Of a DNA stretch of 43,137 nt, positions 18,001-21,000 are shown piece after piece (the first letter of the stretch is position 1; each line of letters begins with the position of its first letter). This stretch comes from a virus (taxonomy: Duplodnaviria > Heunggongvirae > Uroviricota > Caudoviricetes), in the IMG/VR virus record IMGVR_UViG_2721755646_000007; one strand, given 5' to 3'. Position numbers: made by a program.

Positions 18001-21000
18001 GTATTTCAAGATTAAAGAAGACCGGCGTAAGGCGGCGCGGGGAGAGTAAAGTGATGAAGAAAAAATACGAACTGGTTGTTAAAGGGATAAATAATTACCC
18101 GGATAAGATTACTGTTACTGTGGCACTGGAAATTGGTGGGTATCCGTCACTGTTGTTGCCAGATGTGGCGATTAGTCTTGACCGTACTGAAGGTGCCACG
18201 CTGGAGTTTTACGAAGCTGAGGCGAAAAAGCAGGCGAAGCAGTTTTTCATGGATGTTGCTGCCGGGTTATGTGAAGGGGATGGTCCGTTGCCGGAAAAGC
18301 GCCCCGTAATTTTAGAGGCGCAGGATGTGTTGATAACCTACAGAGGAAAACTACCGGGAATAATTACGGGTTCTCTGAAGACTCCACCGCTGGCCTGAAG
18401 ACTTAACATATCCAGGGATTTGAAATCGATAAACCCTGATAAATATCCATGAACGCAAAAATCAGATACGGCCTGTCGGCTGCCGTTCTGGCGCTGATTG
18501 GTGCAGGGGCGTCTGCGCCTGAAATCCTCGACCAGTTTCTGGATGAAAAGGAAGGTAACCACACCACAGCATACCGTGATGGTGCGGGTATCTGGACCAT
18601 CTGCCGTGGAGCCACCCGGGGGGATGGTAAGCCTGTTATTCCTGGCATGAAGCTGTCGAAGGAAAAATGCGACCGGGTTAACGCCATTGAGCGTGATAAG
18701 GCGCTGGCATGGGTGGAGAAAAACATCAGAGTGCCGCTGACCGAACCCCAGAAAGCGGGGATCGCGTCATTCTGTCCGTACAACATTGGCCCCGGTAAGT
18801 GTTTCCCGTCGACGTTTTACAGACGGATTAATGCAGGAGATCGAAAAGGTGCCTGCGAAGCGATTCGCTGGTGGATTAAGGACGGTGGCAGGGACTGCCG
18901 TATTCGCTCAAATAACTGTTACGGTCAGGTATCCCGTCGTGACCAGGAGAGCGCGCTGGCGTGCTGGGGAATCGACAGATAAGCAGAATATTTTGCTGAA
19001 AAATGAGGTTTGCTTACATGGACGGATAACACGAAATCCTGCAAATTGGCAAAATGTAAGTGAATAAAGTCAAAACAGTTGTTTAACACTCAGGCACCGT
19101 AATGATGCCTTTGTCATTTCTGCGCATCTCACGCGCATCTCACAACACAGAACCTTTCAGGATGACCCTTGAGGATACCGGTTTGGCTGTCGGTGCCTTT
19201 CTGTGGGCTGGATTCCTGTGAGACAAGGTTCATCACTAAAAGGAAATAACCGATGAATATGATGGCCGTGCCGTTTCACGGCAACTCTCTTTATGTAGTT
19301 AACCATAATGGCGAACCATACGTTCCCATGAAACCTGTCGTTGCGGGGATGGGGCTGGCCTGGCAATCACAGTTGGCTAAGTTAAGACAGCGTTTTGCGT
19401 CAACTATAACGGAAATCGTTATGGTTGCTGAGGATGGGAAACAACGCAATATGGTGTCCATGCCACTTCGAAAACTTGCCGGCTGGCTACAAACCATTAA
19501 TCCCAACAAAGTAAAACCCGAAATCCGCGATAAGGTCATCCGGTATCAGGAAGAGTGCGACGATGTTCTTTACGAGTACTGGACGAAGGGTTTTGTCGTT
19601 AATCCCCGTAAAATGAGCGTGATGGAAGAACTCAACCAGGCTTGTGCTGACATGAAACGGGATAAAAACATTGCCAGTGTGTTTGCTACCGGGCTGAATG
19701 AGTGGAAACAGGTTAAAGCCGCGCATGTATCAAAAATCCGTACGCTGGTAAATGAAGCGAATATGCTGATTGATTTTGTCCTGGCTGATACAGGCAAAGG
19801 GAAAATAACAAAGGCGGATTGATGGGGTGGCTAATGATATCAGATAAACTCATAACGCTGGTGAAGAGCCTCTGTGTACTTGTCGGCATTTCATTTTTAG
19901 TCATGCTGGTTGCCATTTTCTTTTCCACCGCCTGGCGAGTCCTGACGTTATCGGGACTGGTGGGGTGAAAGAGAGATGAACCGTGTTCTGTGTGTGGTGA
20001 TTATTGTCCTGGCGGTTGGCTATGGTGCGCTGTGGCTGGCAACAAACCATTACCGTGACAACGCGCTCACCTACAAAGCGCAGCGCGATAAAAAAGCCAG
20101 AGAGCTGGAACAGGCGAATGCCACCATTACTGACATGCAGGTGCGCCAGCGTGATGTTGCTGCGCTCGATGCAAAATACTCGAGGGAGTTAGCCGATGCG
20201 AGAGCTGAAAATGAAACTCTGCGTGCTGATGTTGCCGCTGGTCGTAAGCGCCTGCGGATCAACGCCACCTGCTCCGGTACCGTGCGTGAAGCCACCGGCA
20301 CCTCCGGCGTGGATAATGCAACCGGCCCCCGACTGGCAGACACCGCTGAACGGGATTATTTCATCCTCAGAGAACGGTTGATGACAATGCAGAAGCAGCT
20401 GGAAGGGGCACAGGACTATATCCGCACTCAGTGCCTGAACTAAGTTTTGCTGATGCGCCGTATCGTCGCCGTATTCCTGCATTAACAGAGACCGCAGCCC
20501 GACAGGGAGACTCCTCTGCGAGAGTGTGCGGGGATAATCAAAAACGATACACACCGGGGTTTACCGCGTAAACGGAGCGCGGCGTTCTCCCCTCATGGTC
20601 GCCCGTCCGGTGCGATGGTGGAAGAAACTGGAATCTGTTCAATAAAAAAACTGCCGTGTTGGAGTCACAGCAGTAATGTACTGATTGGGTAGAAGATTAT
20701 TATTGTTATGCTTTATTTTTATTCTATATGGCTGATTATTTCAATTCGGAATTAATACAGCTAATGTCTGTGAGTTTTTATAAATTCAGCAATATAAAGA
20801 AATAGTTATATGAACAGCCATCGCAGAGCATACTGTGTATCATTCTTTTTTATAGTCAACTGACGGGCATATTTTATGTCTGCTGCCAGCTCCCGGCGGC
20901 AAGATTCAATGACCCACGCAGAAAAATTTTCTGAACCTTTCTGGTCAAGAGCGATGTTAATTTGTTCAATCATCTGGTTTGGAAATCGGATGTTGCGGGT

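Follow-up and report, generated by a model that had tools for sequence, protein, structure and literature searches.

We analysed a stretch of 43,137 nucleotides (nt) of DNA from a Caudoviricetes virus (IMG/VR virus record IMGVR_UViG_2721755646_000007; hereafter, the window), which is a lambdoid prophage of Escherichia coli O157:H7 with its lysis module at positions 17843–20443. In this module, a ydfR-family gene is located between the holin gene (S) and the endolysin gene (R), and an antirepressor-like gene (ant) preceded by a structured leader is located between R and the spanin genes (Rz/Rz1). The 2.9-kb cassette is 100% identical to that of many E. coli O157:H7 chromosomes and 99.4% identical to that of phage YYZ-2008, and RefSeq annotates the products of the same cassette as class II holin, YdfR family protein, lysozyme, phage antirepressor N-terminal domain protein, hypothetical protein, and lysis protein. 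The features of the module are as follows (aa, amino acids).

17761–17797, + strand: strong intrinsic-terminator-like hairpin with T-run just 5' of the holin gene (11-bp stem, 7 G-C pairs, TTTTTGTTTT tail)
17843–18049, + strand: S21-type class II holin of the pinholin family, 68 aa (PF04971, E 7e-33; phrog_9876)
18054–18398, + strand: ydfR-family gene (DUF1327), 114 aa (PF07041, E 1.8e-46; phrog_406, E 1e-64)
18449–18982, + strand: R21-like signal-arrest-release (SAR) endolysin of the T4-lysozyme family, 177 aa (PF00959; PDB 3HDE/3HDF, 4ZPU)
19093–19119, + strand: terminator-like hairpin GGCACCG-UAA-UGAUGCC followed by UUUGUCAUUU, the 5' boundary of the ant cargo module (read from the sequence and folded)
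19114–19255, + strand: conserved structured leader of ant (alignment of relatives, folding, and covariance model)
19253–19822, + strand: ant/d_ant, Bro-network protein, 189 aa (P22_AR_N, E 1.4e-45, plus ORF11CD3)
19822–19968, + strand: gene for a 48-aa single-pass membrane protein (phrog_4906)
19976–20443, + strand: Rz i-spanin (PF03245, E 5e-50; phrog_13)
20196–20381, + strand: Rz1 o-spanin lipoprotein, embedded in the +1 frame of Rz (PF06085, E 1.7e-21)

The gene arrangement is already known, because it is common, annotated, and published, and both genes that a preliminary description had regarded as inserted into the cassette belong to known, annotated, and widespread families. That description had placed its open reading frames (ORFs) correctly on the + strand, as confirmed by the ORF listing, with one extra gene between holin and endolysin and an Ant-like gene between endolysin and Rz, both co-oriented with the late and lysis genes; a third small ORF, encoding 48 aa at 19822–19968 between ant and Rz, had been missed. 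The arrangement is not unusual, however, as had been supposed: of 5426 complete E. coli genomes, 582 contain at least 80% of the cassette, as do 44 phage records, and the location of ant downstream of R is found in the literature (PMC4426718). In a slot survey of 80 related IMG/VR loci with a 94–99% identical holin, S and R, thought to be normally adjacent, abut in only 7 of the 52 loci carrying this endolysin type, and a YdfR-family module lies between them in 42 (the DUF1327 module in 28; DUF1327 and, either fused to it or next to it, a coiled coil with a C-terminal domain, hereafter N+C, in 8; the C-terminal module only in 6), as in the essQ-ydfR-rrrQ order of the Qin prophage; the other 3 have a 690-nt insert without an ORF. 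In contrast, the module is present in none of the 21 loci with a different lysozyme (29–35% identical). The R–Rz slot of the 80 loci is empty, or contains a small membrane ORF alone, ant with the membrane ORF, or another Bro-type gene. The S|R and R|Rz sites are two recombination slots with contents differing among otherwise near-identical cassettes, in agreement with the initial view of the extra genes as accessory cargo, which would be transcribed with the late genes. The arrangement that had been flagged changes nothing, being annotated in RefSeq, present in E. coli K-12 and the classic Shiga toxin (Stx) phages, and common in E. coli. The locus is probably a standard mosaic lysis module of the phage 21/Stx-phage type, composed of pinholin S, YdfR, SAR endolysin R, the structured leader, the Ant-like Bro-family gene, the 48-aa membrane protein, and Rz/Rz1, with YdfR, the leader, and Ant playing the roles proposed below.

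The 114-aa ORF, first described as having no recognisable motif, matches DUF1327/YdfR (PF07041) over residues 2–113 with 156.7 bits against a cut-off of 25, and its RefSeq entry (WP_000731241) is named "YdfR family protein". DNA similar to ydfR was found in 3158 of the 5426 complete E. coli genomes, in up to 8 copies per genome, and in 101 phage records, all of Escherichia, including H-19B, BP-4795, and Stx2 phage 86. The protein family is taxonomically narrow, with 56 representatives among 1.84 billion clustered proteins in an exhaustive HMMER search; two giant repetitive proteins among these matches were rejected as compositional, the others being close YdfR family members. Between the two main allele classes, the core of the gene (codons 1–74) has a synonymous substitution rate (dS) of about 1.6, which is saturated, and a ratio of nonsynonymous to synonymous rates (dN/dS) of about 0.25, so that the suspicion that the ORF might lack a coding signal is not borne out. 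The opposite expectation, that it might be a universally present and known lysis-regulatory protein, holds in part: the gene is conserved and occurs widely, but not universally, and it is not known as a regulator of lysis. The protein is soluble and acidic (isoelectric point (pI), 5.5), with neither a transmembrane segment nor a signal peptide. In the AlphaFold2 model, residues 1–72 form a β-β-β-α core (predicted local distance difference test score, 70–88), and the tail of residues 75–114 is modelled as disordered. A sequence search of the PDB with YdfR gave no meaningful matches; the long form of the family yielded a poor structure model, and a fold search with that model gave noise.

Two-hybrid and pull-down assays reportedly show that the K-12 homologue of YdfR, via its first 72 residues, binds RNase E in its catalytic N-terminal half, and RNA co-purifies with the homologue (PMC13232886). 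Our best inference, drawn by analogy with that protein, would be that YdfR is coupled to the holin and serves, late in infection, as a cytoplasmic accessory factor that acts on RNase E or RNA. In the window, the ATG of ydfR is located 4 nt past the holin stop codon, with its Shine-Dalgarno (SD) sequence GGGAGAG (18040–18046) within the 3' end of the holin gene; upon Q-dependent late transcription, YdfR would be made in step with the holin. It would not be a lysis effector, because cassettes without ydfR exist, and its likeliest target would be host RNase E or RNA, because the conserved core corresponds to the first 72 residues by which the K-12 homologue binds RNase E and co-purifies RNA. Several points weigh against this assignment. 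The RNase E data concern only the K-12 protein, to which the window allele is only about 40% identical; overexpression of K-12 YdfR changed few transcripts (PMC13232886); the acidic character of the 114-aa protein suits protein binding better than RNA binding; and the strict association with one endolysin type (42/52 against 0/21) also fits a lysis-specific role or mere linkage.

That lysis-specific role is the main rival for YdfR. The YdfR family would then consist of dedicated lysis modulators, translated together with the pinholin and tuning the release or activation of the SAR endolysin or the triggering of the pinholin, possibly as a cytoplasmic antiholin-like partner or an endolysin-specific factor. 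We regard this as unlikely, but it stays under consideration because ydfR is tightly coupled to the holin and its modules occur exclusively with R21-like endolysins. The position 4–5 nt past the holin stop codon is kept in alleles down to 41% identity, as in the divergent phage homologues Evi, PhiR42_1, and mEp460 (41–57% identity), where ydfR begins 5 nt after the stop of S, and in Qin and PhiR42_1 ydfR also overlaps the start of R by 4 nt. Moreover, in cassettes without ydfR, R takes the place of ydfR at the junction, starting 4 nt past S, and would rely on the SD within the 3' end of the holin gene, whereas in the window R sits 50 nt 3' of ydfR, and a direct reading of 18399–18448 reveals no recognisable SD upstream of its ATG. 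Since ydfR takes the SD of the S|R junction and R is left without its own, the insertion of ydfR probably lowers or re-wires R translation. On the other hand, the 7 of 52 otherwise near-identical cassettes without a module indicate that it is dispensable for lysis; regulation of pinholins and SAR endolysins takes place in the membrane and periplasm, and YdfR has no membrane segment or signal peptide; YdfR is associated with neither single- nor dual-start holin alleles; the variable module content (N only, C only, or N+C) is unusual for a fixed partner; and no lysis phenotype for YdfR was found in the literature.

The YdfR family is modular. Forms of 113–116 aa consist of the core and a 40-residue PEKRP...GKLPG tail; those of 176/183 aa have in addition a coiled coil, and those of 268–333 aa also a C-terminal domain (phrog_1085), whereas proteins of 185–213 aa contain the coiled coil and C-terminal domain only. 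Compared with the 176/183-aa loci, the window is without about 450 bp between codon 112 and a point 65 bp 5' of R, and the flanks of the missing segment still align at 97% and 88%. Because of this missing segment with both flanks aligning, the 114-aa form is best read as a deletion derivative of the modular family, the direction of change being inferred.

From the same evidence one might go further and take the 114-aa ORF as a decaying remnant of a long 296-aa YdfR-family gene, functionless in this prophage. The disordered tail, the tail dN/dS of 0.4–1.3 (with few substitutions), and the many truncated and rearranged YdfR variants are consistent with decay, as is the lost segment itself. Such a remnant is nevertheless improbable, given that the short form is abundant with an intact frame (several 113–116-aa allele classes, in clusters of hundreds to more than 1000 members), that K-12 YdfR is short as well (103 aa) with its first 72 residues sufficing for RNase E binding (PMC13232886), and that the core is under purifying selection. 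YdfR-family genes are present in more than half of complete E. coli genomes, always in translational coupling with the pinholin, and the modularity and the recent link to RNase E offer a concrete experimental lead.

Further variants were seen at the S|R slot. Alternative occupants (loci L021, L023, L044, L054, L081, L038, and L052) include the 185–213-aa coiled-coil and C-terminal-domain protein (phrog_36381 plus phrog_26186), which belongs to no Pfam family, and 296-aa fusions of DUF1327 with this protein; L038 carries a C-module protein followed by a separate, divergent 75-aa DUF1327 gene. The 690-nt inserts (L033, L039, and L050) contain no + strand ORF of at least 75 aa (the longest are 60–73 aa) and are unlike the YdfR modules. 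Among YdfR variants in the databases, one (P0001, 196 aa) has an internal tandem duplication of the core. In-frame holin–YdfR fusions of 184–187 aa (PF04971 plus PF07041; P0010 and P0068) probably represent frameshifts at the 4-nt junction or sequencing errors.

The 189-aa protein encoded between R and Rz is 100% identical to the product of VT2-Sakai ant and 95% identical to that of the 933W-like Stx2a phages, and the gene is present in 390 phage records. An ant/d_ant gene downstream of R has been described in Phi24B, 933W, Stx1 and Stx2 phages, and VT2-Sakai (PMC4426718), and Ant genes are present in 126 of 279 Stx phages (PMC8136144). Pfam assigns to the protein P22_AR_N (PF10547; 154.6 bits) and ORF11CD3, and its identity to P22 Ant (49.6%) is confined to residues 1–126, where the tblastn match stops. 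Because it has the N-terminal domain of P22 Ant and ORF11CD3 without the P22 C-terminal domain, the protein is a member of the domain-shuffling Bro network (PMC10111431). A sequence search of the PDB with Ant gave no meaningful matches. Once translated, Ant would act as a Bro/antirepressor-type regulator on the repressors of resident prophages. What counts against this role is that P22_AR_C was absent from the Pfam scan of the 189-aa protein and that no repressor target is known for the window Ant; for Phi24B Ant, repressor inactivation was likewise proposed from homology only (PMC4426718).

The one item of the locus that may be new is the structured, SD-sequestering leader of ant, about 140 nt long. 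Its elements, and a second copy of the leader in the window, are given below.

19146–19152: 5' strand of helix H1, CACAGAA
19153–19157: anti-SD, CCUUU
19161–19171 with 19224–19234: helix P2
19172–19175 with 19214–19217: helix P3
19177–19194: inner hairpin
19199–19205: 3' strand of helix H1, UUCUGUG
19239–19246: SD, AAAGGAAA, followed by the ant ATG at 19253
14495–14635, + strand: second copy of the ant-type structured leader, before a TerB-family gene (106.7 bits in the covariance model, the copy being part of the training alignment)

A tandem repeat had been noted here, and Tandem Repeats Finder indeed gives an exact 2 × 11 nt repeat, GCGCATCTCAC, at 19122–19143, one base off the interval first reported (19123–19144). 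It is not a chance occurrence, because by our own estimate only about 0.01 repeats with a period of at least 11 are expected per 43 kb of random sequence. The repeat corresponds to hairpin P1, UGCGC-AUCUCAC-GCGCA (19121–19137), and a linker that happens to resemble its loop; relatives have GCGCAU-UUAACACAGA or GCGCAC-AUCACAACACAGA at this site. A recent duplication or a repeated binding site was considered and rejected: the relatives have GCGC-loop-GCGC followed by a similar CA-rich linker, so that the apparent second copy is the 3' arm of the hairpin plus the linker. The whole recurring unit consists, from its 5' end, of a terminator hairpin with a T-run, the GCGC-loop-GCGC hairpin, a CA-rich linker ending in CACAGA(G/A), CCUUUC, a long stem with interruptions (containing a small hairpin and the conserved CU(C/U)UGUGGGC), AAAGG(A/U)A, and ATG; the relatives carry strong terminators where the window has the 19093–19119 hairpin.

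We collected 52 unique variants of the leader, and examined covariation in a MAFFT alignment of 30 sequences (A3), using as controls the same structure with partners slid by 1–3 columns and 500 shuffles. The proposed structure has 92.3% of cells paired, compared with 32–48% in the slid controls, and 13 pairs changed on both sides, compared with 2–4; its covariation score is 0.257 against about 0.06, a value that was reached in none of the 500 shuffles. All 30 sequences keep the anti-SD/SD helix CCUUU:AAAGG unchanged, and P2 and P3/P4 hold most of the covariation (10 pairs with changes on both sides). In addition, a further helix, CACAGAG:CUCUGUG (H1), pairs the apical loop with the part of the linker that directly precedes the anti-SD; two of its positions covary, with A-U replacing G-C in 10 sequences and C-G in two. 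Since this pairing is topologically incompatible with the long SD stem, H1 either forms a pseudoknot or, as steric considerations make more likely, replaces the long stem. The minimum-energy fold (ViennaRNA) of −32.5 kcal/mol has the SD sequestered, and the nascent RNA up to the 3' strand of H1 folds, with the same program, into H1. GGA motifs in the leader (19158–19177 and 19239–19246; CAGGAUG, GAGGAUA, and the SD AAAGGAA), which recur in other classes, resemble CsrA sites by eye.

The leader precedes a variety of cargo genes: Ant, KilA-N (with or without P63C), ANT/KilAC, Rha (with or without ORF11CD3), T5orf172, TerB, and, once, a periplasmic binding protein. With one genome per species, the DNA pattern was found only in Enterobacterales, apart from chance matches and a few assemblies that are probably contaminated; it occurs in the genera Citrobacter, Raoultella, Pantoea, Erwinia, Mixta, Siccibacter, Franconibacter, Rosenbergiella, Pseudescherichia, and Entomohabitans. 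Pattern matches in Iodobacter (two) and in a deltaproteobacterial metagenome-assembled genome (MAG) were rejected as chance. The periplasmic-protein case is in a Pseudescherichia MAG (L217:5945–6115), where the leader stands before a 281-aa secreted NMT1_3/phosphonate-binding-like protein. The covariance model (R1) finds exactly two copies in the window, 19114–19255 and 14495–14635, both belonging to its training set; the latter lies 3' of a terminator and three tRNA genes, and 5' of the TerB-family gene. In this TerB copy the G-tract is expanded (G11, compared with GGGGGTG in most relatives; 14495–14700), the first frame of the TerB-family gene stops after 16 codons at a poly-A run, and the RefSeq start is an out-of-frame TTG; the tract could be slippage-prone, or the gene frameshifted. 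With Rfam 15, no family, whether C4, sar, IsrK, or any other, matched any part of the lysis region at the gathering score, and at E up to 10 there were only two chance-level partial matches in 18950–19300. A literature search for conserved strings of the leader returned only unrelated primers, and no description of the structured 5' leader of ant was found in the papers searched.

Judging from the aligned sequences, the leader may be a two-state switch, with the long SD-sequestering stem as one state and the CACAGAG:CUCUGUG helix as the other. The long-stem state would hold ant translationally silent, and the alternative state would permit its translation, either on the nascent transcript or after the action of a trans factor or an RNase. 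Our overall proposal is tentative, and we hold it at rather less than even confidence: the sequences at 19114–19255 and 14495–14635 would represent an undescribed class of two-state RNA leader, portable together with a terminator, that gates the translation of TerB and what may be termed Bro-family cargo (Ant, KilA-N, Rha, KilAC, and T5orf172) in the late regions of Enterobacterales prophages, and YdfR would separately be a holin-coupled factor targeting host RNase E at lysis. As for the leader, the following tell against the proposal. The structure was derived from the same sequences used to test it. There are only about 6 sequence classes, spread horizontally, and hence few independent covariation events; the anti-SD/SD helix, being invariant, is uninformative either way on covariation. 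The single-sequence fold z-score is unremarkable (0.17), and the predicted minimum-energy fold of the TerB copy in the window differs from the consensus structure.

A different view would be that the sequence 5' of ant acts as DNA, namely as a recombination "linker" for cargo swaps or as a promoter/operator, and not as an RNA regulator. The unit of roughly 140–180 bp, always with the terminator first and standing before unrelated cargo genes, fits a mosaic-exchange boundary; GCGC...GCGC, with its two halves one helical turn apart, repeats in direct as well as in inverted orientation, like a protein-binding site; and the small number of sequence classes is also in line with this view. We consider it improbable, since the compensatory double changes that keep P2, P3/P4, and H1 paired across classes argue for selection on the folded strand and not on duplex DNA, the invariant anti-SD/SD pairing is placed exactly at the ribosome-binding site, and no consensus promoter was found. 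The RNA leader is of interest because ant in Stx phages is believed to affect induction and through it toxin release, and the conserved leader pairs with the ant ribosome-binding site; if functional, it would act post-transcriptionally as a common switch for a whole set of antirepressor-like cargo genes carried by prophages of pathogenic E. coli.

It is very unlikely that both genes are lysogenic-conversion or defence morons, expressed in the lysogen from their own promoters (for example, to exclude superinfecting phages or to defend against phages) and having nothing to do with the late programme: both do occupy variable cargo slots, the terminator-like hairpin (located upstream, not downstream, of the ant module, with strong terminators in the relatives) would insulate ant from upstream transcription, the leader cargo includes the TerB family linked to stress and phage resistance, and the RNase E study refers to a genetic screen that linked K-12 ydfR to envelope integrity (PMC13232886), but YdfR, its long form, Ant, and the 48-aa protein match none of the defence models of PADLOC, no sigma-70-like site was found 5' of ydfR or ant in a consensus scan (weak evidence), the 4-nt spacing from S leaves ydfR no room for a promoter, and K-12 ydfR has almost no RNA-seq reads in standard growth (PMC13232886). 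NCBIfam scans also gave nothing for YdfR, Ant, or the 48-aa protein, and a defence role for YdfR finds no support.

As for the other genes of the module, the lysozyme matches the phage 21 lysozyme structure 3HDE over residues 9–174 (E-value, 5.5e-18) and also 4ZPU (RrrD), has a weakly hydrophobic Gly/Ala-rich segment at residues 9–27, and contains the catalytic triad E35-x8-D44-x5-T50, as read from the translation. Because of the alignment with 3HDE from residue 9, this N-terminus, and the triad, "pinholin plus SAR endolysin" appears to be a fair description of the genes of the window. The dual-start motif of phage 21 yields both an antiholin and the holin; the window holin is single-start (ATA-CAT-CAG-ATG, 17831–17845), and the dual-start ATG-NNN-CAG-ATG is found in 62 of the 80 related loci. 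Replacement of a lost antiholin by YdfR was rejected, as single-start status is unassociated with the presence of YdfR. The start of the 48-aa gene overlaps the ant stop codon by one base (TGATG), and its end is 8 nt 5' of Rz. The ORF has a dN/dS of 0.15–0.47 with the stop position kept and a Kyte-Doolittle maximum of 2.82, and is also kept directly 5' of Rz in cassettes without ant; its product is a candidate extra membrane protein of the lysis module.

Owing to the terminator-like hairpin at 17761–17797 just 5' of the holin gene, Q-modified late transcription would need to read through. This hairpin is part of a 450-nt non-coding stretch (17395–17842) extending from a NanS-p-like esterase gene to the holin gene; by analogy with the prophage small RNAs (sRNAs) PasA/PasC, which according to a 2026 preprint adjoin the holin/lysozyme operon, an sRNA gene may lie within it. 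Elsewhere in the prophage, Rfam matches were obtained for DicF, the sok antitoxin RNA (near which hokD is annotated in the RefSeq copy), three tRNA genes, and STnc100 (5' of the esterase gene), at 4223–4274 (− strand), 11120–11294 (+ strand), 14210–14456 (+ strand), and 15234–15406 (+ strand).

Among known systems, the K-12 Qin segment essQ-ydfR-rrrQ-rzpQ/rzoQ (YdfR, P76160) has the same order as the window, with ydfR 4 nt past the holin stop codon, and the two YdfR proteins belong to the same Pfam family with a common β3-α N-terminal core. K-12 YdfR, of 103 aa and about 40% identical to that of the window, has a different tail and overlaps the start of rrrQ, whereas the window has the 40-residue PEKRP...GKLPG tail and the 50-nt gap before R. 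In the canonical phage 21 cassette, S adjoins R and is dual-start. The window shares with S21-R21-Rz/Rz1 of phage 21 the PF04971 holin, the R21-related endolysin (3HDE) with a SAR-like N-terminus, and Rz1 within Rz; unlike phage 21, it has three intercalated extra ORFs and a single-start S. Small RNase E-binding proteins that modulate RNA decay include Dip of phiKZ, gp0.7 of T7, and Srd of T4, as well as the host proteins RraA/RraB and RapZ. K-12 YdfR binds the catalytic half of RNase E like RapZ (PMC13232886), but has no homology or common fold with these modulators, the analogy being functional only.

The ant gene of the window is the same gene in the same position 3' of R as ant/d_ant of the Stx phages VT2-Sakai, 933W, Phi24B, and BP-4795; binding of a 20-nt RNA, 24B_1, inside ant has been proposed in published work as its regulation. 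With P22 Ant it has a common N-terminal domain, which is followed by P22_AR_C in P22 and by ORF11CD3 in the window; the window ant is located in the lysis module, whereas that of P22 is in the immI region under the control of Arc, Mnt, and sar. For the ant leader, the isrK-orf45-anrP locus of Gifsy-1 appears to be the closest functional precedent by analogy. The two are unrelated in sequence and by Rfam (the window gave no IsrK match), and in the window there is no conserved upstream ORF and the SD itself is directly sequestered. In Gifsy-1, the antirepressor-like gene anrP is likewise located 3' of a terminator, within a late-regulatory region of the prophage, and of two mRNA structures one is translationally silent and the other active (Hershko-Shalev et al. 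2016, PMC4825925).

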